This document shows, piece after piece, positions 1-23,705 of a stretch of 29,886 bases of DNA. Made by a program: the position numbers and the translations under genes. Position 1 is the stretch's first letter. The number at the start of each line of letters is the position of its first letter. The stretch spans positions 1 through 29,886 of the forward strand of contig CAXNNM010000001.1 in the NCBI GenBank assembly GCA_964203735.1, read 5' to 3'. The stretch is from Gaiellales bacterium (GTDB lineage: Bacteria; Actinomycetota; Thermoleophilia; Gaiellales; F1-60-MAGs149). The notes below the pieces were generated by a model, which ran no database searches, was not told the origin of the DNA, and worked only from the letters and a program-made list of their open reading frames with translations.

Positions 1-171
1 CTCGGCGGCAACGTCCGCGTCGGCCTCGAGGACAACCTCTACATCAGCAAGGGTGAGTTCGCCTCGAACGCGCAGTTGGTTGAGCGCGCAGTCACGATCA
101 TCGAGAGCCTGGGTGGCACGGTTGCCGGTCCCGACGTCGCGCGCGAGCGGCTCGGGATCACCAAGCGCTAG
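1..171 (+). CDS. 3-keto-5-aminohexanoate cleavage enzyme / beta-keto acid cleavage (BKACE, DUF849) family, C-terminal fragment truncated by the window edge
   Basis: My frame-1 translation (not in the ORF track): [56 protein letters not shown]. The [11 protein letters not shown]...SNAQLV motif is typical of the BKACE C-terminus. Confidence 0.85.
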
Positions 172-947
172 CGGTCTCGCCACTCCGGCTTGCGCTTCTC
201 GGTGAAGGCCGCCACGCCTTCAGCGAAGTCCTCTGTGCTACGAAGCAGGCCATAGGCGAGACCTTCGAGTTCCATCCCAATACTGAGCGACGTATTTGGA
301 GCCTGATTGAGAACGCGCTTGAGGGTGCGGAGCGCGACAGTGGGACGGGCCGCCATGTCGTCTGCCAACGCTGCCACAGCCGCGTCCAGCTCGGCCCGTG
401 GGTGCACCTCGGTCAGTAGGCCCCAACGATGCGCCTCATCGGCCTTCAAACGCCGGCCGCGCATGACCATGTCTTTCGCACGCCCCAGGCCAACCATCTG
501 CACGATCCGTTGAGAGCCGCCGGACCCAGGGATCATGCCAAGCGAGATTTCGGGCAAGCCAATCTGCGTATCGTCAGCCGCAATGCGAAAATCACAGGCC
601 AGCGCAAGCTCGAGACCGACACCAAGGCAATATCCATGCAACTGAGCAATCACCGGCTTAGGACATCGCTCGGGCGCAGCAACGTTGTCATGAAGGTGGC
701 TGATCCACTCGGGATCGACCTGCATAAACCCGGCGATATCACCCCCGGCGGTGAAGGCCTCATCGCCCGCTCCGCGCACCACGATGCAGCGAACGCGGTC
801 GTCGTTGCCGAGCTCTTCGAAGGCCCGGGCGATTTGGGCACGCGCCGTCACCGCGACGCGATTCATCTTGCCTGGAACATCGAGCGTCAGGGTCGCGACG
901 CGACGCGCTTCGTCGAGTTCGACGCGGAAGCCTTCGCATTCAGTCAT
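168..947 (-). CDS. hmfE: Crotonase-fold (enoyl-CoA hydratase family) protein, probable 2-oxoglutaroyl-CoA hydrolase
   Basis: Motifs [35 protein letters not shown] and [15 protein letters not shown]. It is the last gene after a Mo-hydroxylase trio and a CoA ligase, the hmfABCDE order. Start re-placed at MTECEG (ATGA overlap with the ligase stop, GGAGGAG SD upstream). Confidence 0.75.
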
Positions 948-2443
948 TGCTCCTCCTTCAGGAGTCGTCGGAGAAGCTTGCCCGAAGCGCTCTTGGGTAG
1001 CTGATCCACAAAGATATAACGGCGCGGCCGCTTGAAGCGCGCAAGCTCGGTGGCGGCTAAACAATAGGCATCTAATTGATCGTCGCTAACAGCAGCGGAT
1101 GCGACGATATATGCGGTGACGAGGTGGCCGAGTCGTTCATCGGGAGTGCCGATTACGGCTGCCTCCAGTACCGCGGGGTGACGAACGAGCAGCTCCTCGA
1201 TCTCAAGCGGGTGGACGTTCTCACCGCCAGAAATGATCATGTCGTCGATGCGACCATCAATCCAGAGGTCGCCATCTGCATCTTCGTGCGCGAGGTCACC
1301 AGGAAAGTACCAGCCGTCACGGATCTGCTTGGCATCGGCATCGGGGCGCTTCCAGTAGCCAGTGAAGGCCTCGTCGGATGCCAGCGAACAGACGACTTGA
1401 CCGACCTCTCCCGGCGCGACAACGTCAGTTGGGCTGGCCTCAAGGTCGGGTCGAACGAGACGAATCCGCTCGTTGACCCCCGGGCGACCTGCGCAACCTG
1501 GTTTTGCGCGCTGGTCGCTGTGGACGGTGAACGTGTAGATCTCTGTCGATCCATAGTGATTGACAAACACGTCGGGGTCGAACAATGCGACGCAGCGTTG
1601 GGTCAAAACACCCGTCATCGGCGCTCCCGCGTAGGCGATGCGTCGAACCGATGACACGTCACGCGGAGCCGCCTCGTGCGCCAACGCCATGTCATGAAAG
1701 AGCGTTGGTGCGAGGTAGAGGCACGTCAGTTCGTCGTGCAGCACGAGGTCGAGGGCGCGGCTGGCGTCCCACTCTTCCATCAGGTGGAGGCTGCCACCGA
1801 CCAGCGTCATCGCGAGCATCGAGCGCTGCCCCATCGTGTGGTACAGCGGCATCACCCCGAGCGTGCGTTCGCTAGGTCCGTACCCACACTGTGCAACGTG
1901 GGCGATCGACGCGGCTCGCTCGGCCGCATGGGAGCGCGGCACGCCCTTCGGATTGCCCGTCGTCCCTGACGTGTAGAGCATCAGAGACGGTGCGCACTGA
2001 TCAACATCGGTTGCCTCAGCGAGCGGAGCGGCAGCCTCGAGATCGGCGAACGGCGTACCTTTTTCGGCACCTGCGACAGCAACAATCGGGATCCCCTCGA
2101 CGAGCTCTGCGACATCAATCGAGTCAGGTTCTATCACGAGCAACGCAGACTCTGCATCCTGGACGCAGTAGTGAAGTTCGACGGGACGCAATCGCCAGTT
2201 GAGGGGGACAAAGACGCCGCCAAGCCACTGCGTTGCCCACCAGAGGACGACAGTCTCCTCGCGATTACGAAGCGCGACGGCAACACGGTCCCCTTGGCCA
2301 ACACCGAGCGCTGCCATGCCGCTGGCAACGCATTTCGCCCGTTCGAACAGTTCCGCGTAGGTGAGTCTGCGGTCGCCGTCGGTGAGAGCGACCGCCGCAG
2401 GGTGCCGCTCCGCACAGCCGATCAGATGTTCGGCAAAATTCAC
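944..2443 (-). CDS. hmfD: Acyl-CoA synthetase (ANL family), probable 2-furoyl-CoA synthetase
   Basis: Adenylation motifs LYTSGTTGNPKG, YGSTE, GRIDDMIISGGENVHP and PKSASGK. The GTG start overlaps the stop of the 2Fe-2S gene (GTGA). Substrate is inferred from operon context. Confidence 0.75.
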   Translation of the reverse strand: MNFAEHLIGCAERHPAAVALTDGDRRLTYAELFERAKCVASGMAALGVGQGDRVAVALRNREETVVLWWATQWLGGVFVPLNWRLRPVELHYCVQDAESALLVIEPDSIDVAELVEGIPIVAVAGAEKGTPFADLEAAAPLAEATDVDQCAPSLMLYTSGTTGNPKGVPRSHAAERAASIAHVAQCGYGPSERTLGVMPLYHTMGQRSMLAMTLVGGSLHLMEEWDASRALDLVLHDELTCLYLAPTLFHDMALAHEAAPRDVSSVRRIAYAGAPMTGVLTQRCVALFDPDVFVNHYGSTEIYTFTVHSDQRAKPGCAGRPGVNERIRLVRPDLEASPTDVVAPGEVGQVVCSLASDEAFTGYWKRPDADAKQIRDGWYFPGDLAHEDADGDLWIDGRIDDMIISGGENVHPLEIEELLVRHPAVLEAAVIGTPDERLGHLVTAYIVASAAVSDDQLDAYCLAATELARFKRPRRYIFVDQLPKSASGKLLRRLLKEEQ

Positions 2444-2922
2444 AGCGCCCGCTCCGACTCGGGCGGCAAACCGGCCGCGTCGGCAATCGCTTCGATGATC
2501 CCGACGTACCCCGTGCAGCGGCAGAGGTGCCCAGACAGCAGGTCTGTGATCGCCGCCCGACTCGTCAGTTCACCACGCTCCAGTGCCTCGGTGGCGGTGG
2601 CAAGAATGCCCGGCGTACAGAATCCACACTGCAACCCGTGGTGCGTCGAGAAGGCGACCTGCAAGGGGCTGAGCGTGCCCGCCGGGTCTGCTAATCCCTC
2701 AACGGTAAGGATCTCACAGCCAGCGACCTGAACGGCGAGCAGCAGACAGGAACGTGAGGCGACTCCATCGACGAGGACGGTGCAAGCACCACAGACGCCG
2801 TGTTCACAACCAACGTGGGTGCCACGCAAGCCAAGGTCGTGACGAAGGACGTCGGAAAGCAGGCGGCGATCTTCGATGTCGCGTCGGTACGTGCGACCAT
2901 TGACCGCGAACTCGACATTCAT
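2440..2922 (-). CDS. hmfC: CoxS/XdhA-type 2x[2Fe-2S] small subunit, probable furoyl-CoA dehydrogenase subunit
   Basis: GCEHGVCGACTV, SC, QCGFC and HLCRCTGY cysteine sets; ATGA overlap with the FAD subunit. Confidence 0.8.
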   Translation of the reverse strand: MNVEFAVNGRTYRRDIEDRRLLSDVLRHDLGLRGTHVGCEHGVCGACTVLVDGVASRSCLLLAVQVAGCEILTVEGLADPAGTLSPLQVAFSTHHGLQCGFCTPGILATATEALERGELTSRAAITDLLSGHLCRCTGYVGIIEAIADAAGLPPESERAL

Positions 2923-3758
2923 GCCAGTGCCTCCGCGAGCGCTCGAACGACGAGCGTGCCGATAAGCGATCGTCGGTAGGCCGATGGTGCGTGCGGCGAA
3001 TCAGGCGGATCCACCGACTCAGCGGCGAGCGCGCGTAGTTCGTTCGGTGGCACACCGGCCACGATCGCGGCCTCAACCATGGTTAGGCGAATAGGACGAT
3101 CGGACACTGCCCCAGCCGCAACCCGTGCTTCGATGACGTCGCCGTCCTCTATGTGCACCGCGAGCGCGACGATCGCCATGGCGTAGTCGCCGTGGCGTTG
3201 GGCAACTTCGCCAAAGCCAAAGTGCCAACCAGCACCGAGCACTGGGAAGCGCACTGCGGTCAGAATCTCGTCGTCACCGAGTGACGAGGTGAGGTACGAA
3301 ACGAACAGTTCGGCTGCTGATACGTGACGGGTGCCGTCGAGACCGACAACGACCGCCTCGCCGTCAAGACACACCAGCACGCACGGCAATTCGGCTGCCG
3401 GATCGGCGTGGGCGATCGTGCCACCGACCGTGCCGCGGTTACGTGTCGTCGTGTGGCCGACGTGTGGCAGTGCAAGATCCAACAGTGGACACGCTTCGAG
3501 CGCCGCGCGATCGCGCTCAAGCGCACGTTGCGTGGTCATGGCTCCGACAGTCACGGCCGTGTCCGTCACCTCGATACCGACGAGCCCGGCAACGTCACGA
3601 AGATCCACCAGCACATCGGGAGTGGCGAGTCGAAAGTTGAGCAGAGGCATCAGTGACTGGCCCCCTGCCACGACCTTCACGTACCCGCCCGTAGCGAGCA
3701 GCCGACAGGCCTCGTCAATCGTTGACGGTCGCTGGTAGACGAGTGGCGCGGGCTTCAT
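2919..3758 (-). CDS. hmfB: CoxM-type FAD-binding medium subunit, probable furoyl-CoA dehydrogenase subunit
   Basis: MKPAP start (ATGA overlap with the large-subunit stop), AGGQSLMPLLNFR and RNRGTVGG motifs. No Cys-rich [4Fe-4S] insertion. Confidence 0.8.
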   Translation of the reverse strand: MKPAPLVYQRPSTIDEACRLLATGGYVKVVAGGQSLMPLLNFRLATPDVLVDLRDVAGLVGIEVTDTAVTVGAMTTQRALERDRAALEACPLLDLALPHVGHTTTRNRGTVGGTIAHADPAAELPCVLVCLDGEAVVVGLDGTRHVSAAELFVSYLTSSLGDDEILTAVRFPVLGAGWHFGFGEVAQRHGDYAMAIVALAVHIEDGDVIEARVAAGAVSDRPIRLTMVEAAIVAGVPPNELRALAAESVDPPDSPHAPSAYRRSLIGTLVVRALAEALA

Positions 3759-6181
3759 TCCGCCTCTCCCTGCAACAGTGCCCAAACGCGCGCGGGCGTG
3801 AGTGGAATCGGGACCGCGTCTATGCCAATCGCGTCGGCAACAGCATTTGCGAGACAGGCCGGTGCGCTCATCGTATTGCCCTCACCAAGCCCTTTGGCAC
3901 CGAGCGGCGTAGTCGGCGACGGCGTCTCGATCGCGCGGTGGCGTACCGGGGGCAACTCGGTCGCGGTCGGTGGTAGGTAATCGAGGAACGAGGCCGTCAT
4001 CAGATTGCCGTCCTCGTCGTAGCGGTGCTCTTCGAGGAGCGCAGCCCCGAGACCGTGAGCGAGTCCGCCCATCATCTGCCCGTCGGCAATCAGCGGGTTA
4101 AGAATCCGGCCAGCGTCGTGCACGGTCGCGTAGCGGAGAACCTGCACCTGTCCGGTCTCGGCATCAACCTCGACGATGGCGACATCGGCAATGAAGCCAT
4201 AAACCGCCGAGGTGTTGCAGCGATCATCTGCATCTGGCTCGGGTAGCGGGATCGTGTAGGTCGCTGTCAGAGCGAGTCCACCGACATCGCCGACAGCGCC
4301 GGTGCCGGCCGGGTTCCAGTGCGCGCCGCCCGCCAAACGCCTGATGCTGATCGAACGCTCTCCATCGTCGGAGGATCGAGCCTTCCCATCGCTCAACACG
4401 ACTGCCTCAGGTGGGCACCCAAGCTCATGCGCGGCGAGCGTCTTCAGGCGGTCGGCGAGAAGTGTCGCCGCGTGGTGAATCGCGCTTGCGACGACCGCCG
4501 AGAACCGCGAAGAGTAGTTGCCACTCGAGACGGTCCAGGGGTTCGCCGAGGTATCGGCCTCGGTGCGAACGTCAACATCCTCGAGCGACACTCCGAGAGC
4601 GTCAGCGACAATCTGCGCTGCAACGGTCCGATGGCCCTGCCCTTGGGGTGTTGATGTAAACCGTACGGTGACCCCCCCGTGCGGCCCCATCGCGATCGAG
4701 ACGCCTTCGCTATTGCCCGTCTTGGGGAGGCCTCTCGCACGCACCTCTGCGGGCTGAGCAAGGCTGATGTAGCCCATGTTCGAGACACTTGGCTCGACGA
4801 CGACCGCTAGGCCGATCCCGACCAACCTCCCCTGCGCCCGCTTCGCATCCCGAAAGGCCAGTAGCTCGTCGTAGTCGGCAAGCTCGAGGGCCTCGTCGAA
4901 ACACCGCAGGTAGTCCCCAGAGTCGTAAATGGCTCCAGCCGCCGCGCGGTATGGCATCTGCTCCGAGCGAACCAGGTTACGGCGGATCAACTCGGCGTGG
5001 TCGAGGCCTAACTCGCCAGCCGCGATCATCATCGTACGCTCGAGTGGGTAGTACAGCTGGGGTCCACCGAAGCCACGATTGAGCCCGGTTGGAGCCCGAT
5101 TGGTCACCACGACACGCGAGCGTACGGCAAGATTTTGTACGTCGTAGGCACCTGTCAGGCAGCCGTGCATGCGGTACAGCGTCGCTGGTTCGGGTGCGCG
5201 TACGTAGGCGCCGACGTCATCGAGTAGGTCCAAGTCGAGTGCAACGAGTTTGCCATCGGCATCGAAACCAGCCGCGATCTCGGTCAGGCGCTCAGTCGCA
5301 GACGATGAAGCGAGCAAGTGTTCGCCGCGGTCCTCCGTCCAGCGCACCGGAATGCCAAGCACCCGACTGACCGCCGCCATCAGCACGACGTAGACAAAGA
5401 CTGCGGACTTGATGCCGTAGGACCCACCGCTTGCCGGCGGCGTGCAGAGGCGCAGCTTCGACGCGGGAATACCAAGTGCAGCAGCCGCGACACCGTGCAG
5501 CGTGAATGGTCCTTGAAAATTCGCCCACGCATCAACGCCACCCCGCGACTCGTCCCAGTTAGCGATCACGCCGTAGGTCTCGACGGGCGTCGCGCTGTTG
5601 CGCGGGTGTCGAAACCGACGGCGCACAACAAGCACCGCGGTGGCAAATGCCTGCTCGGGGTCGCCATAGCGAAACGTGCGGTCCGAGACAACGTTGGAGG
5701 TCGTCGCGGCGTGTAAGCGGATTGCCGTTGGCTCGGCCGCGCTTGCCGGATCGGCGACGACCGGCTGCGGGTCGTAGTCGACGACCACGAGCGCCGCAGC
5801 GTCCTCTGCAACGTAGCGATCCCGTGCCACCACGACCGCGACCGGTTCGCCGGCAAAGCGCACGCACTCGTACGCCGCTGGTCGATAGTCGATCGGCACG
5901 TCGAGCACCGATGGAAATGGCTGGGTAATCGCAGCGATCTCAGCTCCGGTAACGACGCCGATGACGCCATCCACAGCCAGCGCGGCAGAGACATCAATCG
6001 ACCGAATCTGAGCGTGTGCGAAAGGTGAGCGCACAATGGCTGCATGCCCTGCATGTGGCAGGGGATCAATGTCGTCGATAAACCACTCGCGACCTCGCAG
6101 CAACGGGTCATCCTCAACGCGAGTAATGCCGCGTCCGACCCAACTTGGCTTGGTCTCGGTTGCTTCCATCGGTTCCGACAT
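3755..6181 (-). CDS. hmfA: Xanthine-oxidase-family molybdopterin large subunit, probable 2-furoyl-CoA dehydrogenase large subunit
   Basis: Motifs VRFAGEPVAVVVA, GGSYGIK, active-site loop NRGFGG, QGQGHRT, SSGNYSSR and KGLGEGN (catalytic Glu). The start is uncertain: 6232 GTG, 6181 ATG or 6169 ATG. I chose 6181 because 6232 lies inside the predicted larB promoter. Confidence 0.75.
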   Translation of the reverse strand: MSEPMEATETKPSWVGRGITRVEDDPLLRGREWFIDDIDPLPHAGHAAIVRSPFAHAQIRSIDVSAALAVDGVIGVVTGAEIAAITQPFPSVLDVPIDYRPAAYECVRFAGEPVAVVVARDRYVAEDAAALVVVDYDPQPVVADPASAAEPTAIRLHAATTSNVVSDRTFRYGDPEQAFATAVLVVRRRFRHPRNSATPVETYGVIANWDESRGGVDAWANFQGPFTLHGVAAAALGIPASKLRLCTPPASGGSYGIKSAVFVYVVLMAAVSRVLGIPVRWTEDRGEHLLASSSATERLTEIAAGFDADGKLVALDLDLLDDVGAYVRAPEPATLYRMHGCLTGAYDVQNLAVRSRVVVTNRAPTGLNRGFGGPQLYYPLERTMMIAAGELGLDHAELIRRNLVRSEQMPYRAAAGAIYDSGDYLRCFDEALELADYDELLAFRDAKRAQGRLVGIGLAVVVEPSVSNMGYISLAQPAEVRARGLPKTGNSEGVSIAMGPHGGVTVRFTSTPQGQGHRTVAAQIVADALGVSLEDVDVRTEADTSANPWTVSSGNYSSRFSAVVASAIHHAATLLADRLKTLAAHELGCPPEAVVLSDGKARSSDDGERSISIRRLAGGAHWNPAGTGAVGDVGGLALTATYTIPLPEPDADDRCNTSAVYGFIADVAIVEVDAETGQVQVLRYATVHDAGRILNPLIADGQMMGGLAHGLGAALLEEHRYDEDGNLMTASFLDYLPPTATELPPVRHRAIETPSPTTPLGAKGLGEGNTMSAPACLANAVADAIGIDAVPIPLTPARVWALLQGEAE

Positions 6182-6191
6182 AGTAAACACG

Positions 6192-6208
6192 AATCCGCTG
6201 AGCGGAAC
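6192..6208. promoter_or_regulatory. Candidate operator 1, AATCCG-CTGAG-CGGAAC (core palindrome TCCGCT-G-AGCGGA at 6194-6206)
   Basis: Palindrome in the hmfA/larB divergent intergenic region; 14 of 16 positions match the site upstream of larA. Confidence 0.65.
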
Positions 6209-6214
6209 AAGATC

Positions 6215-6244
6215 TTGCGTTTGTTGGCCCACCCACCGTAGACT
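6215..6244 (+). promoter_or_regulatory. Putative sigma70/SigA promoter for the larB operon, TTGCGT-N18-TAGACT
   Basis: -35-like TTGCGT at 6215-6220 and TAnnnT -10 at 6239-6244. The larB ATG at 6254 has no SD, so the mRNA would be near-leaderless. Confidence 0.45.
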
Positions 6245-6253
6245 CCCGCCACG

Positions 6254-7036
6254 ATGGATCCCGTAAAGCGAACAACCGATCCACTCACCATGCTGCTCGA
6301 GAGCGTGCGCGACGGTTCGCTCGGTCTTGACGAGGCTACGCGAGAGCTACGCGAGCTGCCCTTTCGCAACCTCGGCTTCGCTCGCGTCGATAACCACCGC
6401 GAGCTGCGACAGGGCGCACCTGAGGCAGTGCTCGCCGAAGGCAAAACCCCGCACGAGGTCATCGCAATCATGGCCGCTCTCGCTGAGGGAACATCGTCGA
6501 GCGTCCTCGTGACACGCGTTGATGAGGCCTGTTTTGAGGCCGTGCTGACAGCGTATCCCGATGCGCAATTCCATCGGCGTGCCCGCTGTATTTGGCTCGA
6601 ACGTGCGCTCCCCGAACCACTTGGACGCGTGGCGATCGTCTCGGCCGGTACGAGCGATGGACACGCTGTTCACGAGGCGCGCATTCGCGCAGAACTCATT
6701 GGCACCCACGTCGACACCTATGAGGACGCTGGCGTTGCAGGCCTACACCGCCTTCTCGCCGTCCTTCCCGAACTCGAGGATGTGGACTGCGTCATCGTCT
6801 GTGCCGGTATGGATGCCGCGCTCGCCAGCGTCGTCGGTGGTTATGTCGCGGCTCCCGTGATTGCCGTGCCGACGAGTACCGGCTACGGCGTTACTTTCGG
6901 TGGCGTGGCCGCATTGCACGCGATGCTCGCTTCATGTGCGGCCGGCGTCGCTGTCGTCAATATCGACGATGGCTTCAGCGCCGGGACGATCGCGGCCCGA
7001 ATTGCCCGACGAGCCGCTGGCGAGGAGAGTGTCTGA
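6254..7036 (+). CDS. larB: NPN cofactor biosynthesis NaAD carboxylase/hydrolase LarB
   Basis: FARVDNHRELRQGAPEAVLAEGKT, AGTSD, AGMDAALASVVGG, AVPTSTGYG and MLASCAAGVAVVNIDDGF (PurE-like C-terminal domain). Confidence 0.93.
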   Translation: MDPVKRTTDPLTMLLESVRDGSLGLDEATRELRELPFRNLGFARVDNHRELRQGAPEAVLAEGKTPHEVIAIMAALAEGTSSSVLVTRVDEACFEAVLTAYPDAQFHRRARCIWLERALPEPLGRVAIVSAGTSDGHAVHEARIRAELIGTHVDTYEDAGVAGLHRLLAVLPELEDVDCVIVCAGMDAALASVVGGYVAAPVIAVPTSTGYGVTFGGVAALHAMLASCAAGVAVVNIDDGFSAGTIAARIARRAAGEESV

Positions 7037-8280
7037 TGGGACACGACGGACACGACGGACACGACCACGACCACAATCACAAACACCACGCAACGGTGCT
7101 GCCGACAGCACGGGGCATCGTCTATATCGATGCCATCGGAGGAGCCGCTGGCGACATGTTGCTCGCCGCACTGCTCGATGCTGGTGCACCACTCGAGTCG
7201 GTCGAGGCCGCCGTCGGCTCGCTGGTACCGGGGCTCACGGTCACGGTTGGCCACACCGAACGACACGCGATTGGTGCCCGCACGGTCACCATTGTCGGCC
7301 CCGATGAAGGCCACGTCCATCGCACCTGGCGTGATGTCCGCGCATTGCTTGACGCGGCCGACCTCGCGCCGCGAGCTGCCGCCCGCGCACACCGCGCCTT
7401 CGAGTTGCTCGCTCACGCCGAAGGTCGTGTTCACGGCCAAGACCCCGAGGATGTACATTTTCACGAGGTTGGAGCCATCGACGCGATCGCCGACATCGTT
7501 GGCGTCTGTGCCGCGCTAGAGGCCCTCGGAGCCGACCGTATTGAAGCGGGTCCACTCCCGCTTGGCCGTGGGGTCACGGCGGCCGCGCACGGGCAGATCC
7601 CACTGCCAGCACCGGCAGTGCTTGAGATTCTCCAAGGCTCCCCGATTGCTCCGAGTCTCGTTCAGGGCGAGACCGTGACGCCAACGGGGGCCGCCCTGGT
7701 CGCCGCCGTCGTCGACGCGTGGGGTGGCGTTCCCGCGCTGCGACTCGGAGCGACCGGGTACGGGGCTGGTCAACGCGACACGGCCGAGGTTCCAAACCTC
7801 GTGCGCGTCCTCGTCGGCTCGCCGCTTGCTTCCCCGCGCGACGAAATCGCGATTGTCGAGGCGACAATCGATGATCTCAACCCAGAACTCGTGCCCGACG
7901 CGCTCGACGATGTGCGCAGCGCCGGCGCGCTCGATGTCTGGACCACTCCCGTAGTCATGAAACACGGCCGCCACGGCGTGACCATCACCGCGATCGCGCG
8001 CCCCGTCGATCGAGAGGCCGTCGCAACCGCGCTGCTGCGTTCGACGAGTACCCTCGGCGTCCGCATCACCGACGGACACCGCATCGAACTTGACCGCGAC
8101 TTCATCTCGGTGGAGGTCCACGGCCACGACATCCGTGTCAAGCGCGGGCTGCTCGATGACGCCATCGTCAACGTCGCACCGGAGCACCGCGACTGTGTCG
8201 TTGCGGCGCGGGCACTCGGCGTGCCCGTCAAGGAGATCTGGTCGGCAGCGCTCGCGCAGGCTCACGGTGCCGGACAATGA
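7036..8280 (+). CDS. larC: NPN cofactor nickel insertase LarC, single uninterrupted ORF with an N-terminal His-rich extension
   Basis: YIDAIGGAAGDMLLAALLD, VHFHEVGAIDAIADIVG, ETVTPTGAA, EATIDD, STLGVR and PEHRDC motifs. Start re-placed at 7036 (TGATG overlap with larB). Confidence 0.92.
   Translation: MGHDGHDGHDHDHNHKHHATVLPTARGIVYIDAIGGAAGDMLLAALLDAGAPLESVEAAVGSLVPGLTVTVGHTERHAIGARTVTIVGPDEGHVHRTWRDVRALLDAADLAPRAAARAHRAFELLAHAEGRVHGQDPEDVHFHEVGAIDAIADIVGVCAALEALGADRIEAGPLPLGRGVTAAAHGQIPLPAPAVLEILQGSPIAPSLVQGETVTPTGAALVAAVVDAWGGVPALRLGATGYGAGQRDTAEVPNLVRVLVGSPLASPRDEIAIVEATIDDLNPELVPDALDDVRSAGALDVWTTPVVMKHGRHGVTITAIARPVDREAVATALLRSTSTLGVRITDGHRIELDRDFISVEVHGHDIRVKRGLLDDAIVNVAPEHRDCVVAARALGVPVKEIWSAALAQAHGAGQ
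7039..7089 (+). repeat. Short tandem repeat (GGACACGAC x3, then CACGAC/CAC units) encoding GHDGHDGHDHDHNHKHH
   Basis: Read directly at 7039-7089. Confidence 0.85.
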
Positions 8281-9134
8281 GCACGCCCCCCTCTCCCCAC
8301 GCACTGACACGGCTCAGCGACCGGATCGTCGAACGGGTCGCCGGGCTCGATGGGGCTGTAGTTGCGCTGTCAGGTGGTGTCGATTCGTCGGTGGTCGCCG
8401 CCTTGGCCGTCCGTGCCCTCGGCGAGCGAGCGCTCGCCGTAACTGCTGTCTCTCCGGCGCTCGCCACGGGCGAGCTCGATGGCGCCGCCAGCGTGGCTCT
8501 CACCGTTGGCATCCGGCACGAGGCGATTATGACGAATGAGCTGGCGCGCGCCGGCTATCGCGCGAACGGTTCCGACCGCTGCTATCACTGCAAATCCGAG
8601 CTCTACGACAACCTCGCTGCGATCGCCCAGCAGCGCGGCTACGCAGCCGTGCTGTCGGGCGCGAACGCGGATGACCTTGGCGACTGGCGCCCCGGCCTAA
8701 TTGCAGCGGAGGAACACGGCGTACTGCATCCGTTGGTTGAGTTTGCCGTTGACAAAGACCAGGTGCGGCTGCTCGCGGCACACCTGGGCGTACCGAACGC
8801 CAAGAAGGTCGCCAGCCCATGCCTAGCCTCGCGCATCCCCCACGGTACGCCGGTCCACGCGGATACATTGGCGCAGATTGATCGTGCCGAGCAGGCTCTG
8901 CACGGACTCGGACTCGGACCACTGCGGGTTCGTCACTACGACGAGCTAGGTCGCGTCGAATTGAGCGAGAATGACCTCGCCCGTCGCGATCTGCTTGAGC
9001 CAGCGATCGTCGCGGCCGTCACGGTCGCCGGCTACACCAGCGTGGAGATCAGTGCCACGCCCTTTCGGTCGGGAAGTTTGACGCGCCAATTCGTCAGCAG
9101 CCTCCCGATCGCGCAGTGCGTGGAGAACCGCTGA
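8277..9134 (+). CDS. larE: NPN cofactor sulfur transferase LarE (PP-loop ATPase)
   Basis: PP-loop SGGVDS, DRCYHCK, NADDLGDWRPG, SPCLASRIPHG and LRVRH motifs; ATGA overlap with larC. Confidence 0.93.
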   Translation: MSTPPSPHALTRLSDRIVERVAGLDGAVVALSGGVDSSVVAALAVRALGERALAVTAVSPALATGELDGAASVALTVGIRHEAIMTNELARAGYRANGSDRCYHCKSELYDNLAAIAQQRGYAAVLSGANADDLGDWRPGLIAAEEHGVLHPLVEFAVDKDQVRLLAAHLGVPNAKKVASPCLASRIPHGTPVHADTLAQIDRAEQALHGLGLGPLRVRHYDELGRVELSENDLARRDLLEPAIVAAVTVAGYTSVEISATPFRSGSLTRQFVSSLPIAQCVENR

Positions 9135-9856
9135 TGGGACTGTTCGATCCCATTGACGAGCACCTCTCGACCGTGGGTGGTGGTTGGGTTTTTGTCCTCG
9201 TTGTCGCAGTCCTGCTCGGACTGCGTCACGCAACGGATCCCGATCACCTGACAGCGTTGCTCTCCCTGCGCCTGAGAGGCAGCCAGCGACCACCCCATCG
9301 ACTGGGCCTCGCCTGGGGCGCTGGTCATGCGGTGACGATGATCCTCGTCGGAGTGCCCTTGATCCTGTTCGTTGGACAACTCCCCACTGCGCTGCAGCAG
9401 GGGCTTGAGGTGGCTGTCGGCATACTCATCATCGTGCTCTCAATCCGTGTGCTGTGGGGACTCGTAGAGCTGAGGGCCCACGCGCACGAGCACGCCCATG
9501 GTGACGGCGTCGTACACTCTCACCCCCACGTCCACGGTGCCGGCGCGCACGCGCATGGCATCCGATCGACGCGGAGCGCCTTCTCGATTGGTCTGCTCCA
9601 TGGGGCCGCTGGCAGCGCCAGCATCGTCGCACTCATTCTCACGCGCCTCGAGAGCCCACTGCTCGCCTGCCTCTCACTCGTGGTCATCGCCGGCTTCTGC
9701 ATGCTCTCGATGGCCTGCTGCTCGTGGGTGCTCTGCCGGAGCCTTGACGGTAGCGAGCGACGCGTTGATCAACGTTGGATTGCTGGCGTCGGCGGCAGCC
9801 TCGCGCTCTGCTTTGGCTTCGTCTACGCCGCCTCCGCGGCGGGTTTCGTCGCATGA
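9134..9856 (+). CDS. Nickel/cobalt transporter (NiCoT-like, UreH/SodT type) membrane protein
   Basis: GLRHATDPDH resembles the NiCoT RHAxDxDH signature; also WGAGHAVT, a His-rich loop and GLLHGAAGS, with several hydrophobic segments. Start re-placed at 9134 (TGATG overlap). Confidence 0.8.
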   Translation: MGLFDPIDEHLSTVGGGWVFVLVVAVLLGLRHATDPDHLTALLSLRLRGSQRPPHRLGLAWGAGHAVTMILVGVPLILFVGQLPTALQQGLEVAVGILIIVLSIRVLWGLVELRAHAHEHAHGDGVVHSHPHVHGAGAHAHGIRSTRSAFSIGLLHGAAGSASIVALILTRLESPLLACLSLVVIAGFCMLSMACCSWVLCRSLDGSERRVDQRWIAGVGGSLALCFGFVYAASAAGFVA

Positions 9857-10629
9857 ACGACGAAGTCACTCGTAGCGCGACGAGCCTGGCATCCGTCGAC
9901 CGCTCACTGCGATTACTCGAGGAGCTCGCACGCTCTGGCGATCTCGGCGTCACCGAACTTGCCTCACGGATTGGCGCTGGCAAGGCAACCGCCCATCGGC
10001 TAGTCAAGACGCTCGAGGCGCGCGACTACGTCGTCCAGAACACCAATTCGACGTATCGGCTCGGGCCTCGCTGCCTCTACCTCGCCCAAGGTGTCGAAGC
10101 CGGCCTCGACCTGCGCAGCGCAGCACTGCCGATCCTCGCGGCCCTGCGGGATCGCACCGGCGAGACGGCACAGTTGACCGTCTTCGATGAGGGCGACGTC
10201 GTCTACGTCGAGCAGGTCACGTCCCGTAAGCCCGTGCGTAGCGTTGGGGAAATTGGTGGCCGAGCGCCCGCGCATTGTGTGTCCGGCGGCCTAGCCCTGC
10301 TCGCCTTTGGGCCACCGGAGAGTGTCGCCTACCTTACCGCCCGTGGCGAATCTTCCCCTACCCCAACGGCGAAGCAACGCTGGCTCGACCTCGATGCCGA
10401 GCTCTCGACAATCCGTACAGCAGGCTATGCGGTCAACCGCGGCGGTTTCCAGTCAGAGGTCGGTGGCGTGGCTGCACCAATTATGGACGTCAACGGCATC
10501 GCCATCGCAGCCATCAGCACCTGCGTTCCTCTGTTTCGCCTCGATGCGGTTGGTGTCACCACGCTCGCGGAGGCCGTCACCTCTGCCGCCCGCGAAATGA
10601 GCGTGCTACTCGGGGCCGACGCCGGATAG
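9853..10629 (+). CDS. IclR-family transcriptional regulator
   Basis: N-terminal HTH SVDRSLRLLE...GVTELASRIGAGKATAHRLVKTL, then YRLG, TGETAQL, and C-terminal GYAVNRGG...GVAAPI. Start at MNDEV (ATGA overlap with the transporter stop). Confidence 0.93.
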   Translation: MNDEVTRSATSLASVDRSLRLLEELARSGDLGVTELASRIGAGKATAHRLVKTLEARDYVVQNTNSTYRLGPRCLYLAQGVEAGLDLRSAALPILAALRDRTGETAQLTVFDEGDVVYVEQVTSRKPVRSVGEIGGRAPAHCVSGGLALLAFGPPESVAYLTARGESSPTPTAKQRWLDLDAELSTIRTAGYAVNRGGFQSEVGGVAAPIMDVNGIAIAAISTCVPLFRLDAVGVTTLAEAVTSAAREMSVLLGADAG

Positions 10630-10653
10630 TTCCTAGCCAGACCACCTGAGGGG

Positions 10654-10935
10654 CTATCGAGACTGATACCCAGGACGGCGCGGCACTTTAACGCCGGCAG
10701 CCGCAATTTGCTCCTCCGTTGGTCCGTTGTCGGCGAGTGACCGGAAGGCCTCAAGTACTGCACGCGGCGAGTTGCGGTGCCGGATCGCAGCCATCGTCAA
10801 GGGCTCGGAGAGAGCACCACTGCAGTGCGCGCACGGCCAGTACAACCGTCGCGAAAGTTCGGCCGCCGTACCGGGATATTTTTTGAAGATATCGACCAGT
10901 AACGTCGAGCCAGTGATGCTGAACTCGGTGGTCAC
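10654..10935 (-). CDS. Small CxxC protein resembling DUF1858 (hybrid-cluster-protein-associated redox disulfide domain)
   Basis: ITGSTLLVDIFKKYP...WPCAHCSGALSEPLTMAAIRH follows the I..T...I..KYP...CxxC..A..E.L..AA..H pattern. The GTG start is 8 bp after the larA-like stop on the same strand. Confidence 0.6.
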   Translation of the reverse strand: MTTEFSITGSTLLVDIFKKYPGTAAELSRRLYWPCAHCSGALSEPLTMAAIRHRNSPRAVLEAFRSLADNGPTEEQIAAAGVKVPRRPGYQSR

Positions 10936-10943
10936 GTGTCGGC

Positions 10944-12368
10944 CTAGTGCGTCGGGATCTCCACAGGCGGCGGCTCGTTCGGCGTCATCCGAATCATGTG
11001 GCGCGCGAGCTGGTAGCGGGCGAAGGGCAAGATCACGACCTTCGCATCCGGCCCATGCTTTTCGAGCGCACGATCGAACGTCTCTTGGAGCGAGGTGCTA
11101 GCGGCAATGCCGATCTCCGCCGCCATTGCGAGGTTCTCTTCCAGCGTCACCATTGTTAGGTGCTTGCGCGTCATCACCTCGTAGATTGGCACCCAGATGC
11201 AGCCGGCCCACATCTGGATCGTGCGCGAATGGATATCGCGCAGCACGCGCTCGTAGCTTGCGGTCGTCGGTGGCATATATGGCGTCATTAGATCCATCAA
11301 AGCGAGACCCGGAAAATCACCAATCGCTGTGTGTACGCCGGGCGATGGCGAGCAATAAATGAGATCCCCGCCGTCCTTCAGAATCGGGTCAGCGCTCATG
11401 CAACCCCAGCCGGTGTGGAAGAAAAGATGGTCGGTCGGCGCAAAGACGCCGCAGACCACGATGTCCGCCTGCCCGTGTTCGGCGACCGGGCTATCGTAGG
11501 CATAGATCTCGTTGAATCGCGTGATCGCTGCGACATGGGCCTCGGGGTGACGCCCGAAGATCAGCTCGATCGCGCGCCCGCGGGTGTCGAGAATCGCATT
11601 GAGTGTGCAGTCAAGGCCACACATCGTCGCCACCTCGTCGATATCTGCCCGCATCGGCCCGCCGAGCGCACCGTAATGCGTCTGCGGTGAGGGGACGAAG
11701 GCTCCATGGTTGGACTCGATCGTCTCGTCGGACACGACGCCTGGCATGATCAACTTGCCACCACCGCCCGCGCCCCAATGGTTTGACTGCGCCTGACCGA
11801 TCGTGATCGTGACATCACGCTTCATCACTTCGTTGTGGAGCCAGACCGGTGTGCCACGCGATGAGACGCCGACGAAGGAGTAATTATCCACTTCGCGTGG
11901 ATCGTTCTGAAAGAACGGAATTCCCATTTGCTTCATGCGGGCGAGGTTCTCGCGGCCGATCTTCTGATCAATGTCCGACTCCGACATTGGGAAGACCTTG
12001 CCGTTGGCACAGACGACGACCGCATCCGTGACACCAGCCGCCTCGAGCTCGTCAAAGATGGCGGGCAAGATCTTCATCTGCGGCGTCGGCCGGAACTGAT
12101 TGTCGATCACCACAGCGACGGACTTGCCACCCTTGATCAACTCGGCGAACGTCGGCCCACTCTGCGGGTTGCGAAGTGCGTGTCGCGCAGCCTCTAGCGT
12201 ACTCGCAGTGGGCTCCGGCTCGTTGGGACGAATATCTGCCATCAGGTTCTTGAGCGGGAACGACAACTCGAGGGTATCGCGATAGACCAGCGTGTCGTCA
12301 TCGGCCGACCCAATCGTCAGCGGATCGATCGACTCGTACGGAATGATGGTGTGGTGTAGCTCGGTCAT
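10944..12368 (-). CDS. larA: Divergent LarA-family (lactate racemase superfamily, DUF2088) nickel-pincer protein, substrate unknown
   Basis: LarA-like blocks: ALRNPQSGP, VAVVIDNQFRPTP, GVSSRGTPVWL, GGGGKLIMPG, ETIESNH, LNAILD, ADIVVC, LKDGGDLI and AKVVILPFA. Start at ATG 12368 (GGGAG SD); the upstream GTG at 12401 overlaps the predicted -10 box. The family call is firm; lactate racemase activity is not claimed. Confidence 0.85.
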   Translation of the reverse strand: MTELHHTIIPYESIDPLTIGSADDDTLVYRDTLELSFPLKNLMADIRPNEPEPTASTLEAARHALRNPQSGPTFAELIKGGKSVAVVIDNQFRPTPQMKILPAIFDELEAAGVTDAVVVCANGKVFPMSESDIDQKIGRENLARMKQMGIPFFQNDPREVDNYSFVGVSSRGTPVWLHNEVMKRDVTITIGQAQSNHWGAGGGGKLIMPGVVSDETIESNHGAFVPSPQTHYGALGGPMRADIDEVATMCGLDCTLNAILDTRGRAIELIFGRHPEAHVAAITRFNEIYAYDSPVAEHGQADIVVCGVFAPTDHLFFHTGWGCMSADPILKDGGDLIYCSPSPGVHTAIGDFPGLALMDLMTPYMPPTTASYERVLRDIHSRTIQMWAGCIWVPIYEVMTRKHLTMVTLEENLAMAAEIGIAASTSLQETFDRALEKHGPDAKVVILPFARYQLARHMIRMTPNEPPPVEIPTH

Positions 12369-12399
12369 CGGGGGCTCCCGCGCGTAAGTAGGTAGGTGC

Positions 12400-12429
12400 A
12401 CGCTAGCGTCCGAGAGGCCCTCTGGTCAA
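12400..12429 (-). promoter_or_regulatory. Putative promoter for the larA-like unit, TTGACC-N18-TAGCGT
   Basis: Read on the mirror copy at 17458-17487; same TTG-N18-TAGnnT layout as the larB promoter. Confidence 0.5.
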
Positions 12430-12442
12430 CATTTCGGGCGCT

Positions 12443-12459
12443 GTTCCGACCAGCGGAAC
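12443..12459. promoter_or_regulatory. Candidate operator 2, GTTCCG-N5-CGGAAC perfect-arm palindrome
   Basis: gttccgaccagcggaac at 12443-12459. On the larA sense strand it reads GTTCCGCTGGTCGGAACA, matching operator 1. Confidence 0.65.
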
Positions 12460-12608
12460 GATCGAGGCTCGTCGCCGCGACTGCGCTCGCCGCCGCCGGT
12501 GAGCATTCGGCCGTACCGACGCAGAGTCGGCCGCCGCGTTACGGGCCTGATCAATGCTGTACAAGGGGCGGTGCAGTCCGCGCGCGAAAGGCGTGATTGT
12601 GACACATG

Positions 12609-12640
12609 CGTACGCTATTTTCAGTGCGACACGTACGCTA
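12609..12640 (+). promoter_or_regulatory. Direct repeat CGTACGCTA x2 upstream of vapB, candidate autoregulatory operator
   Basis: Copies at 12609-12617 and 12632-12640, each containing the palindrome CGTACG, ending 19 bp before the vapB ATG. Confidence 0.45.
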
Positions 12641-12659
12641 ACTTTGAGGCATAGAAACG

Positions 12660-12884
12660 ATGGCCAAGAAACACACCTCGCTCTACATCGACGAGCAACT
12701 GCTCGCCGAAGCGGAACGCCTGCTCAGCACGAGCGGACCCACAGAGACCGTCAATCGCGCGCTCACCATGGCGGTGGAGCTCGAGCTGCGACGAGGGCTG
12801 CTCTCGACCCCGTTCGGTATCACGGAGGAAGAGCTCCAGGACATGCGACACCAGCGCGGAGCGTACGAGCGACCGGTCGTATGA
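12660..12884 (+). CDS. vapB: VapB-type antitoxin (RHH-like N-terminus)
   Basis: KHTSLYIDEQLLAEAERLL...TETVNRAL resembles actinobacterial VapB; 74 aa; ATGA overlap with a PIN-domain gene. Confidence 0.85.
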   Translation: MAKKHTSLYIDEQLLAEAERLLSTSGPTETVNRALTMAVELELRRGLLSTPFGITEEELQDMRHQRGAYERPVV

Positions 12885-13294
12885 GTGCTCTGATCGACAG
12901 CTCCGGCTGGATCTGGGCCGAACGCAATCCCTCTGCTGCGGCGACAGGCGACCTGCTAACGGAGATCGAACACGGCACAGCGGGAACCTGCGACCCGGTG
13001 CGTCTCGAACTCCTACGCGGCGTCTCGAACCTGCGCCAGTTCGACACGCTCGACGCTCGACTTTCCGCTCTGCCAGATACCCCAGTCGAACGTGAAGCCT
13101 TCCGGCTTGCTGCCGATATCCAACGTGCACTCGCCAAACGCTCCGGATCCAAGCATCGATCGATCCCTGTTGTCGACTTGCTGATCGCTGGCGCCGCAAT
13201 CGCCGCCGAACAGGTCATCATCCATCGCGATCGAGACTTCGAGACGATCGCGGCGATCACCCATCAGCCCCTGCGCTGGCTCGGACCCCGCTAG
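12881..13294 (+). CDS. vapC: VapC PIN-domain ribonuclease toxin
   Basis: LIDSS, VRLELLRG, VVDLLIAGAA and HRDRDFETIA provide the PIN acidic residues. True start is ATG 12881 (137 aa), not 12554. Confidence 0.92.
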   Translation: MSALIDSSGWIWAERNPSAAATGDLLTEIEHGTAGTCDPVRLELLRGVSNLRQFDTLDARLSALPDTPVEREAFRLAADIQRALAKRSGSKHRSIPVVDLLIAGAAIAAEQVIIHRDRDFETIAAITHQPLRWLGPR

Positions 13295-13303
13295 CCGGCC
13301 GAG

Positions 13304-14902: not shown

Positions 14903-14984
14903 GGGTGGGTTGTAGCAGGGTTGTTGGGGGGTTGGGGTCCCCCGGGGGACCCCAACCCCCCAACAACCCTGCTACAACCCACCC

Positions 14985-16583: not shown

Positions 16584-16592
16584 CTCGGCCGG

Positions 16593-17006
16593 CTAGCGGG
16601 GTCCGAGCCAGCGCAGGGGCTGATGGGTGATCGCCGCGATCGTCTCGAAGTCTCGATCGCGATGGATGATGACCTGTTCGGCGGCGATTGCGGCGCCAGC
16701 GATCAGCAAGTCGACAACAGGGATCGATCGATGCTTGGATCCGGAGCGTTTGGCGAGTGCACGTTGGATATCGGCAGCAAGCCGGAAGGCTTCACGTTCG
16801 ACTGGGGTATCTGGCAGAGCGGAAAGTCGAGCGTCGAGCGTGTCGAACTGGCGCAGGTTCGAGACGCCGCGTAGGAGTTCGAGACGCACCGGGTCGCAGG
16901 TTCCCGCTGTGCCGTGTTCGATCTCCGTTAGCAGGTCGCCTGTCGCCGCAGCAGAGGGATTGCGTTCGGCCCAGATCCAGCCGGAGCTGTCGATCAGAGC
17001 ACTCAT
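16593..17006 (-). CDS. vapC: Mirror copy: VapC PIN toxin
   Basis: Mirror of 12881-13294. Confidence 0.9.
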   Translation of the reverse strand: MSALIDSSGWIWAERNPSAAATGDLLTEIEHGTAGTCDPVRLELLRGVSNLRQFDTLDARLSALPDTPVEREAFRLAADIQRALAKRSGSKHRSIPVVDLLIAGAAIAAEQVIIHRDRDFETIAAITHQPLRWLGPR

Positions 17007-17227
17007 ACGACCGGTCGCTCGTACGCTCCGCGCTGGTGTCGCATGTCCTGGAGCTCTTCCTCCGTGATACCGAACGGGGTCGAGAGCAGCCCTCGTCGCA
17101 GCTCGAGCTCCACCGCCATGGTGAGCGCGCGATTGACGGTCTCTGTGGGTCCGCTCGTGCTGAGCAGGCGTTCCGCTTCGGCGAGCAGTTGCTCGTCGAT
17201 GTAGAGCGAGGTGTGTTTCTTGGCCAT
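17003..17227 (-). CDS. vapB: Mirror copy: VapB antitoxin
   Basis: Mirror of 12660-12884. Confidence 0.83.
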   Translation of the reverse strand: MAKKHTSLYIDEQLLAEAERLLSTSGPTETVNRALTMAVELELRRGLLSTPFGITEEELQDMRHQRGAYERPVV

Positions 17228-17427
17228 CGTTTCTATGCCTCAAAGTTAGCGTACGTGTCGCACTGAAAATAGCGTACGCATGTGTCACAATCACGCCTTT
17301 CGCGCGCGGACTGCACCGCCCCTTGTACAGCATTGATCAGGCCCGTAACGCGGCGGCCGACTCTGCGTCGGTACGGCCGAATGCTCACCGGCGGCGGCGA
17401 GCGCAGTCGCGGCGACGAGCCTCGATC

Positions 17428-17444
17428 GTTCCGCTGGTCGGAAC
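17428..17444. promoter_or_regulatory. Mirror copy: candidate operator 2 (GTTCCGCTGGTCGGAAC)
   Basis: Mirror of 12443-12459. Confidence 0.63.
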
Positions 17445-17518
17445 AGCGCCCGAAATGTTGACCAGAGGGCCTCTCGGACGCTAGCGTGCACCTACCTACT
17501 TACGCGCGGGAGCCCCCG

Positions 17519-18943
17519 ATGACCGAGCTACACCACACCATCATTCCGTACGAGTCGATCGATCCGCTGACGATTGGGTCGGCCGATGACGACACGCTGG
17601 TCTATCGCGATACCCTCGAGTTGTCGTTCCCGCTCAAGAACCTGATGGCAGATATTCGTCCCAACGAGCCGGAGCCCACTGCGAGTACGCTAGAGGCTGC
17701 GCGACACGCACTTCGCAACCCGCAGAGTGGGCCGACGTTCGCCGAGTTGATCAAGGGTGGCAAGTCCGTCGCTGTGGTGATCGACAATCAGTTCCGGCCG
17801 ACGCCGCAGATGAAGATCTTGCCCGCCATCTTTGACGAGCTCGAGGCGGCTGGTGTCACGGATGCGGTCGTCGTCTGTGCCAACGGCAAGGTCTTCCCAA
17901 TGTCGGAGTCGGACATTGATCAGAAGATCGGCCGCGAGAACCTCGCCCGCATGAAGCAAATGGGAATTCCGTTCTTTCAGAACGATCCACGCGAAGTGGA
18001 TAATTACTCCTTCGTCGGCGTCTCATCGCGTGGCACACCGGTCTGGCTCCACAACGAAGTGATGAAGCGTGATGTCACGATCACGATCGGTCAGGCGCAG
18101 TCAAACCATTGGGGCGCGGGCGGTGGTGGCAAGTTGATCATGCCAGGCGTCGTGTCCGACGAGACGATCGAGTCCAACCATGGAGCCTTCGTCCCCTCAC
18201 CGCAGACGCATTACGGTGCGCTCGGCGGGCCGATGCGGGCAGATATCGACGAGGTGGCGACGATGTGTGGCCTTGACTGCACACTCAATGCGATTCTCGA
18301 CACCCGCGGGCGCGCGATCGAGCTGATCTTCGGGCGTCACCCCGAGGCCCATGTCGCAGCGATCACGCGATTCAACGAGATCTATGCCTACGATAGCCCG
18401 GTCGCCGAACACGGGCAGGCGGACATCGTGGTCTGCGGCGTCTTTGCGCCGACCGACCATCTTTTCTTCCACACCGGCTGGGGTTGCATGAGCGCTGACC
18501 CGATTCTGAAGGACGGCGGGGATCTCATTTATTGCTCGCCATCGCCCGGCGTACACACAGCGATTGGTGATTTTCCGGGTCTCGCTTTGATGGATCTAAT
18601 GACGCCATATATGCCACCGACGACCGCAAGCTACGAGCGCGTGCTGCGCGATATCCATTCGCGCACGATCCAGATGTGGGCCGGCTGCATCTGGGTGCCA
18701 ATCTACGAGGTGATGACGCGCAAGCACCTAACAATGGTGACGCTGGAAGAGAACCTCGCAATGGCGGCGGAGATCGGCATTGCCGCTAGCACCTCGCTCC
18801 AAGAGACGTTCGATCGTGCGCTCGAAAAGCATGGGCCGGATGCGAAGGTCGTGATCTTGCCCTTCGCCCGCTACCAGCTCGCGCGCCACATGATTCGGAT
18901 GACGCCGAACGAGCCGCCGCCTGTGGAGATCCCGACGCACTAG
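17519..18943 (+). CDS. larA: Mirror copy: divergent LarA-family protein
   Basis: Mirror of 10944-12368. Confidence 0.83.
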   Translation: MTELHHTIIPYESIDPLTIGSADDDTLVYRDTLELSFPLKNLMADIRPNEPEPTASTLEAARHALRNPQSGPTFAELIKGGKSVAVVIDNQFRPTPQMKILPAIFDELEAAGVTDAVVVCANGKVFPMSESDIDQKIGRENLARMKQMGIPFFQNDPREVDNYSFVGVSSRGTPVWLHNEVMKRDVTITIGQAQSNHWGAGGGGKLIMPGVVSDETIESNHGAFVPSPQTHYGALGGPMRADIDEVATMCGLDCTLNAILDTRGRAIELIFGRHPEAHVAAITRFNEIYAYDSPVAEHGQADIVVCGVFAPTDHLFFHTGWGCMSADPILKDGGDLIYCSPSPGVHTAIGDFPGLALMDLMTPYMPPTTASYERVLRDIHSRTIQMWAGCIWVPIYEVMTRKHLTMVTLEENLAMAAEIGIAASTSLQETFDRALEKHGPDAKVVILPFARYQLARHMIRMTPNEPPPVEIPTH

Positions 18944-18951
18944 GCCGACAC

Positions 18952-19233: not shown

Positions 19234-19257
19234 CCCCTCAGGTGGTCTGGCTAGGAA

Positions 19258-23633: not shown

Positions 23634-23678
23634 CGTGGCGGGAGTCTACGGTGGGTGGGCCAACAAACGCAAGATCTT

Positions 23679-23695
23679 GTTCCGCTCAGCGGATT
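23679..23695. promoter_or_regulatory. Mirror copy: candidate operator 1
   Basis: Mirror of 6192-6208. Confidence 0.63.
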
Positions 23696-23705
23696 CGTGT
23701 TTACT

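Follow-up and report, generated by a model that had tools for sequence, protein, structure and literature searches.

A 29,886-nucleotide stretch of contig CAXNNM010000001.1 from a Gaiellales bacterium (assembly GCA_964203735.1) was analysed over its whole length, hereafter the window. At positions 10944 to 12368 of its reverse strand, the window encodes an atypical protein of the LarA (Lar_N/DUF2088) superfamily, termed the LarA homologue, which by alignment keeps the residues for holding the cofactor, a nickel-pincer nucleotide (NPN), and appears to have a rebuilt active site around them. The gene shares the window with larB, larC and larE and with a cassette resembling the furoate-degradation genes hmfABCDE. 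Genes of the first arm of the window, together with the mirror copy of the LarA-homologue gene, are as follows.

10944..12368 (-): atypical LarA-superfamily protein, 474 amino acids, anchors R93, K205 and H221 kept
17519..18943 (+): mirror copy of the LarA-homologue gene, on the other arm of the palindrome
10654..10935 (-): DUF1858-type small protein of 93 amino acids with the motif WPCAHCSG, starting 8 bp past the LarA-homologue stop
9775..10629 (+): IclR-family regulator, which probably begins further downstream than the TTG given
9116..9856 (+): NicO-like nickel/cobalt permease, Pfam match under the cut-off
8277..9134 (+): LarE, sacrificial sulfur transferase, above the NCBIfam cut-off
6934..8280 (+): LarC, nickel-insertion cyclometallase, above the NCBIfam cut-off; the listed frame overlaps larB and the real start is probably near 7030-7120
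6254..7036 (+): LarB, above the NCBIfam cut-off
3755..6232 (-): HmfA-like molybdopterin large subunit, divergent from larB, with 51% identity over 96% to the hmf-type cluster of Cupriavidus necator NH9
2919..3785 (-): HmfB-like subunit binding flavin adenine dinucleotide (FAD)
2440..2922 (-): HmfC-like [2Fe-2S] subunit
944..2443 (-): HmfD-like acyl-CoA ligase, 50% identical to its Cupriavidus counterpart
168..1064 (-): HmfE-like crotonase-family CoA hydrolase, 52% identical to its Cupriavidus counterpart

The hmfE/D/C/B/A-like genes thus occupy the reverse strand, the larB-larC-larE genes with the NicO-like permease and the IclR gene run divergently from them, and the LarA homologue and the small gene 3' of it, termed CxxC, are convergent with the latter. 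Positions 1-14943 and 14944-29886 form a perfect inverted repeat with arms of 14,943 bases that are 100% complementary and have no spacer; each gene of the window is present in two copies, and only 14.9 kb of the sequence is unique. Such a palindrome is probably an artefact of assembly, for example a contig folded back on itself or a hairpin contig. An amidohydrolase gene at 13304-14902 meets its own copy across the centre.

The open reading frame of the LarA homologue spans 10944-12401 (-), and the ATG at 12368, which is backed by the N-termini of homologues, gives the 474-residue protein. In Pfam, it matches Lar_N (PF09861) with 112.1 bits against a gathering cut-off of 23.3, and LarA_C only weakly (16.7 bits against 25). 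Residue equivalences were assigned by pairwise HMMER alignment against PDB chains and by alignment of a clade profile to LarA of Lactiplantibacillus plantarum (5HUQ), and the two were concordant. R93 corresponds to Arg75, K205 to Lys184 and H221, 16 residues further on, to His200; the retention of these cofactor anchors, which the original prediction had read from motifs alone, therefore holds by both methods. The codons it had given were also right: K205 at 11754-11756, H221 at 11706-11708, V125 at 11994-11996 and W321 at 11406-11408. D89/N90 align with Ser71/Asp72, the second of which is thereby changed from Asp to Asn, and F92 aligns with T74.

The catalytic positions are those that differ. 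V125 takes the place of His108 in both alignments, and no His occurs between residues 63 and 178 of the translated protein, so that realignment cannot supply an equivalent. The positions of Tyr294, Gln295 and Lys298 are filled by F317, H318 and W321, and the Phe/His/Trp replacement is borne out by the clade-profile alignment to 5HUQ. For His174, a segment one or two residues shorter had been proposed, with the His shifted or replaced by Asn. Asn (N196) indeed aligns at this position, and the alignment refines the picture: H197 follows one position later, H197/W198 correspond to Phe175/Phe176, and the deletion that comes next is of a single residue. Two further conserved histidines, H314 and H318, are located on helix alpha-11. 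Mapped onto LarA, H197, H314 and H318 are predicted to sit at or near the substrate-contacting positions. Judged from these equivalences, the protein retains the NPN-holding residues, namely the Arg that binds phosphate, the Gly-rich loop, the Lys that tethers the thioamide and the His that ligates nickel, and has lost the acid/base His pair on which proton-coupled hydride transfer relies, as well as the Tyr, Gln and Lys that grip the carboxylate. The pocket positions hold conserved Phe and Trp in addition to the three new histidines. The earlier doubt about two-base racemisation is accordingly upheld in part: the canonical two-His mechanism cannot run as described, but H197, H314 and H318 may allow acid/base chemistry, even an epimerisation.

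The AlphaFold2 model of the LarA homologue, built from 71 input sequences, reached a mean per-residue confidence (pLDDT) of 91.8 and a pTM of 0.91. A Foldseek search of the model against the PDB gave 19 significant matches, all of them LarA-family proteins, with query-normalised TM-scores (TMq) of 0.79-0.81 to the lactate racemases 9eid, 2yjg, 6c1w and 5huq, in holo and apo forms; the model thus predicts the two-domain LarA fold. Within the superfamily, the protein scores far below every NCBIfam LarA equivalog (LAR, MAR, LarAH10, LarAH14/15/16), the best being the LarAH6 malate racemase with 182.5 bits against 500. A search of 1.8 billion representatives returned one tight family at ~70% identity or above, a few intermediates at 43-34% and the rest of the superfamily near 30%, and the ESM Atlas returned only generic 'lactate racemase' clusters. 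In the maximum-likelihood tree, 13 sequences form one clade with 100/100 support and a stem of 0.63. The alignment marks the clade by Asn72, Val or Leu at 108, a residue other than His at 174, His295 and Trp298; outside it, 50 of the 58 other tree representatives have His at position 108. H318 is conserved across the whole clade, and H197 and H314 in its core. H197 is not kept in the deeper members, and some deep members (P0125, P0140 and P0142) also lack the tethering Lys. The 85 orthologues with 70-99% identity share, without exception, one signature of 16 sites (DNQFR/VF/NHW/K/H/H/F/H/W).

The LarA homologue therefore belongs to a distinct and so far uncharacterised clade of the superfamily, placed apart from the characterised racemase and epimerase groups, and this placement together with the residue mapping supports the proposal of a rebuilt active site. 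Compared to LarA sensu stricto, it has the equivalents of Lys184, His200 and Arg75 and the larB/C/E genes, and lacks His108, His174, Tyr294/Gln295/Lys298 and an equivalog score above the cut-off. The literature search found no described LarA group that lacks both His yet keeps the anchors, and nothing tying LarA to furoyl-CoA, furoic acid or hmfA. Desguin 2020 (groups 1-25) and Gatreddi 2025 (PMC12611868) describe groups that lack His174 only, or groups that lack cofactor residues as well; the motifs NQFRP and HTGW are missing from the 354-sequence dataset of Desguin 2020.

Comparison with solved structures helps to delimit the clade. The LarAs of L. plantarum (5HUQ/6C1W) and Isosphaera pallida (9EIA) share with the LarA homologue the two-domain fold (TMq 0.79-0.81), the equivalents of Arg75, Lys184 and His200 with the 16-residue Lys-His spacing, the Gly-rich loop and, in this genome, the adjacency of larB/C/E. 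However, identity is only ~18-21%, His108 is Val, His174 is Asn, Tyr294/Gln295/Lys298 are Phe/His/Trp, Asp72 is Asn and the substrate loop is one residue shorter; moreover, the LarA homologue has an obligatory DUF1858-like partner and an hmf-type operon rather than a setting in lactate metabolism. The malate racemase Mar2 (6D6Z) is the best HMMER match among solved structures (E 3.7e-31 with the single sequence, 4.8e-51 with the profile) and has the same cofactor-binding motifs, but the LarA homologue reaches just 182 bits against 500 for NCBIfam MAR and lacks the catalytic His and the Lys for the second carboxylate. The single-His LarA subfamily of Streptococcus plurextorum and Blautia wexlerae (9Q2U/9Q3J) resembles it in having Asn at 174, in keeping the anchors and in the non-canonical mechanism proposed (PMC12611868). 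In contrast to the LarA homologue, these proteins keep His108, have Lys instead of Arg75, are ~500 amino acids long and octameric, and occur in a carbohydrate-metabolism context (PMC12611868); they resemble the model less closely in structure (TMq 0.62-0.65) and are not the sister group in sequence searches. Membership in this subfamily was rejected on the Val at position 108 and on sequence and fold matches to 9Q2U/9Q3J that are weaker than those to classical LarAs.

The genomic setting was surveyed in a scan of one genome per species, which found 347 carriers, and 85 related loci were used for neighbour counts. The best 80 of the 347 carriers are all uncultured Actinomycetota (Thermoleophilia/Gaiellales and Acidimicrobiia). 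Near the LarA homologue, the molybdenum (Mo) subunit gene occurs in 64 of the 85 loci, the FAD subunit in 61, the iron-sulfur (FeS) subunit in 60, the ligase in 54 and the crotonase in 42, and the commonest layout, on one strand, is LarA homologue, CxxC, Mo, FAD, FeS, ligase and crotonase. An operon of the hmfABCDE type comprises a Mo-dependent furoyl-CoA dehydrogenase, a CoA ligase and a CoA hydrolase. The HmfA/D/E-like proteins are 51/50/52% identical to those of the C. necator NH9 plasmid cluster. Genes for UbiD, UbiX, a GMC oxidase, LysR and an MFS transporter adjoin that cluster, as in the published hmf layout. Under the homology-plus-vicinity criterion for hmf clusters (PMC3223595), the hmfABCDE-like cassette qualifies, with the homologous Cupriavidus cluster as the reference and not the experimentally studied strain HMF14. 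Plasmid pHTA426 of Geobacillus kaustophilus, a bacterium named as a probable furfural degrader (PMC3223595), is also among the best matches to the hmf-like proteins. NCBIfam identities for the Mo subunits, ligase and crotonase (glyceraldehyde dehydrogenase, carbon monoxide dehydrogenase, xanthine dehydrogenase and 4-hydroxybenzoyl-CoA reductase) were rejected, all being far under their cut-offs with no equivalog. The link to furan catabolism suspected from the window alone is therefore real and conserved.

The most constant neighbour is the CxxC gene, found directly 3' of the LarA homologue in 82 of the 85 loci. The window's own CxxC protein matches nothing in Pfam; 11 of 19 orthologues match DUF1858 (PF08984), with a best E of 8.3e-5, and the model of the CxxC protein has its best PDB matches in 2k5e and 2k53 (target-normalised TM-score 0.75-0.76, E 0.06-1). 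The partner is thus DUF1858-like.

Several other features of the loci were observed. In Acidimicrobiales, eleven loci (L022, L023, L029, L032, L035, L038, L039, L043, L046, L052 and L085) carry a gene for a GlcD-type FAD-linked oxidase and a gene for a 412-residue protein between the CxxC and hmfA-like genes (e.g. L032:11739-13244). Upstream of the LarA homologue, and divergent from it, are the genes of a Liv-type ATP-binding cassette importer (binding protein, permeases and two ATPases) together with a UPF0261 gene (e.g. L030:1923-8638 and L054:2459-9872). Out of 80 loci, about 18-24 have the transporter genes and 13 the UPF0261 gene; an amidase gene is located downstream in 14 loci. In the window, the frame at 12554-13294 (+) has a PIN domain only at residues 113-233, in the C-terminal half. 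The gene actually present there is probably a short one for a toxin of the VapC type, and an antitoxin that was not annotated may lie upstream of it; this frame is not conserved in the related loci. Two distant relatives with the His295/Trp298 signature, L086:7428-8807 (43% identity) and L088:730-2037 (39%), adjoin tungsten/molybdenum oxidoreductases of the aldehyde ferredoxin oxidoreductase (AFOR) family and ferredoxins, and a broader association with pterin enzymes may be glimpsed here. Neighbours in L086 also include two genes resembling quinolinate phosphoribosyltransferase, a TRAP transporter and meta-pathway genes, and the L086 protein lacks the tethering Lys though its genome has LarC. 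One further locus (L007, contig CAMDVX010000025.1) encodes a LarA homologue of 86% identity among actinobacterial neighbours of 64% GC type under the label 'MAG: Bifidobacterium breve', and looks like a mislabelled or contaminated bin of a metagenome-assembled genome (MAG).

The reading that we favour, with a confidence of about one half, is that the LarA homologue is an NPN-loaded LarA-fold enzyme, encoded within or next to a furoate-type operon, which would carry out a hydride-transfer reaction other than 2-hydroxyacid racemisation. In the genome bin of the window (1.0 Mb, 61% complete), the LarA homologue is the sole Lar_N protein found, and it has larB-larC-larE and a nickel permease next to it; we therefore infer that it is NPN-loaded in this organism. 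The aromatic pocket that lacks a carboxylate grip suggests a neutral or thioester substrate. By transient hydride transfer, the enzyme could then isomerise, in a redox-neutral way, or dismutate some neutral or thioester-type compound of the furan pathway, candidates for which would be furfural/furfuryl alcohol, hydroxy- or oxo-dihydrofuroyl-CoA or a lactone intermediate, and H318, H197 or H314 might serve as new proton relays. By analogy, a precedent for non-racemase NPN chemistry on another fold may be seen in NphT, an aldo-keto-reductase-fold protein in which NPN, with a Lys tether and a His nickel ligand, supports intermolecular hydride transfer and disproportionation (PMC13524815), the hydride carrier staying tightly bound during the dismutation. 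NphT is however a TIM barrel with no sequence relation to the LarA homologue, and the analogy is mechanistic only.

Several observations weigh against this reading. When 43 carrier genomes with long contigs were searched for LarC, LarE and LarB, all three were present in 22, and 21 lacked larB, larC and larE together. RecA, used as a control, was found in all 21 of the negative genomes, and on the protein tree the absence is clustered, with 4 changes against 14.6 expected and none of 2000 label shuffles as low. Random incompleteness of the MAGs therefore does not account for the pattern and was rejected as its cause; the absence of larBCE in those genomes is real. The larBCE-negative orthologues nevertheless keep K205, H221 and all signature residues, with zero fixed differences between the two groups. 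A further point concerns the operon, since the proteobacterial hmf genes alone, once transferred, gave growth on furfural (PMC3223595), and the LarA-homologue/CxxC pair therefore adds a function and fills no essential gap. The claim that the protein is an NPN enzyme is thus backed by its anchors and by the adjacent larBCE here, and is weakened by the half of the related genomes in which larB/C/E are missing. In two genomes, G003 (locus L040) and G009 (locus L012), the larB, larC and larE matches are split over adjacent frames, which may be long-read frameshift errors or decaying genes.

The same distribution is the chief argument for a LarA-fold protein that works independently of NPN, with the conserved Lys, His and Arg/Gly-rich pocket serving other chemistry. 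Such chemistry might be an acid/base tautomerisation or lactone opening of hydroxylated furoyl-CoA, a metal site formed by H197/H221/H314/H318, or the binding of another pyridine nucleotide, and the nearby larBCE would then serve other clients. We regard this as unlikely, at about half the weight of the NPN-loaded hydride-transfer enzyme. It would explain why larB, larC and larE are jointly missing in a lineage-specific manner, with at least four changes, while the sequence constraint is equal in both groups; it would also suit the Trudgill pathway, in which the tautomerisation and lactone-opening (hydrolysis) steps have no assigned enzyme and the upstream aldehyde oxidation is unspecific (PMC3223595), and Desguin 2020 had already proposed that NPN plays no part in certain DUF2088 groups. 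Those supposedly NPN-free groups have, however, lost the Lys, His and Arg, which are invariant here along with the phosphate/ribose motif and the Gly-rich loop. Moreover, about 30 of the 85 loci have larBCE no further than 10 kb from the LarA homologue, and in 7 larBCE-positive genomes it is the only Lar_N protein, with larBCE beside it, leaving no other Lar_N client. Three of the 21 larBCE-negative genomes have a second Lar_N protein (185-201 bits), and the one examined (L094:2376-3641) is a nickel-dependent lactate racemase equivalog, with 520 bits against a cut-off of 460 and intact canonical residues including H108, H174 and K184. As a canonical LarA equivalog occurs in a genome that lacks larBCE, the equation of missing larBCE with missing NPN was not adopted, and the absence of these genes is not diagnostic of NPN independence in this lineage.

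That the protein is still a 2-hydroxyacid racemase or epimerase, with H197 and H318 as a relocated acid/base pair acting on a substrate connected with what the pathway finally yields, such as 2-hydroxyglutarate, we consider improbable. Every LarA homologue that has been characterised is a racemase or an epimerase (PMC7583248, PMC11770544), two conserved His do occupy positions that line the substrate site in LarA, and the GlcD-type oxidase gene between the DUF1858 and hmfA-like genes in Acidimicrobiales would act on 2-hydroxyacids. Yet the sequence offers no possible substitute for His108, the carboxylate binders Tyr294, Gln295 and Lys298 are all swapped for non-equivalent residues, the score is far under every racemase equivalog, H197 is not conserved in the deeper clade members, and the single-His subfamily itself showed no lactate racemase activity (PMC12611868). 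Least probable, and by a wide margin below even odds, is a non-catalytic accessory pair, in which the LarA-like and CxxC proteins would help to mature or sulfurate the Mo dehydrogenase, or be its redox partners, in an XdhC-like role. The pair is coupled to the Mo-enzyme genes and usually directly upstream of them, the window shows no XdhC-like gene, in contrast to the hmf-like cluster of Geobacillus, and the distant relatives adjoin AFOR enzymes. No LarA-fold protein is known as a chaperone, however; a set of pocket-like residues this strictly invariant speaks for catalysis or for a tightly bound ligand, and the proteobacterial hmf clusters work without such a pair.

Altogether, the LarA-like protein of this clade probably performs an undescribed reaction. 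Characterised LarA-fold enzymes are all two-His 2-hydroxyacid racemases or epimerases, with only single-His variants described structurally besides, and specialists ask whether the LarA fold can support other nickel-pincer chemistry. A clade that lacks both His and the carboxylate grip, yet has strictly constrained anchors, a furoate-type operon and a CxxC partner, offers an expressible target for a new NPN reaction, and its carriers are abundant uncultured soil Actinomycetota. The carriers without larBCE, one of them with a canonical lactate racemase and probably two more, raise the question of whether NPN is acquired without the known pathway. More tentatively, and with less confidence than in the NPN-loaded enzyme as such, we propose a LarA-fold enzyme that has been rebuilt for a nickel-pincer reaction of a new kind, acting on a compound of the furan pathway, in hosts about half of which are without the known NPN biosynthesis genes. 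If this is true, one of three things would follow: soil Actinomycetota salvage NPN or feed it to one another, the cofactor is reached by an unknown route, or the Lys/His pocket has a second use that does not depend on NPN.

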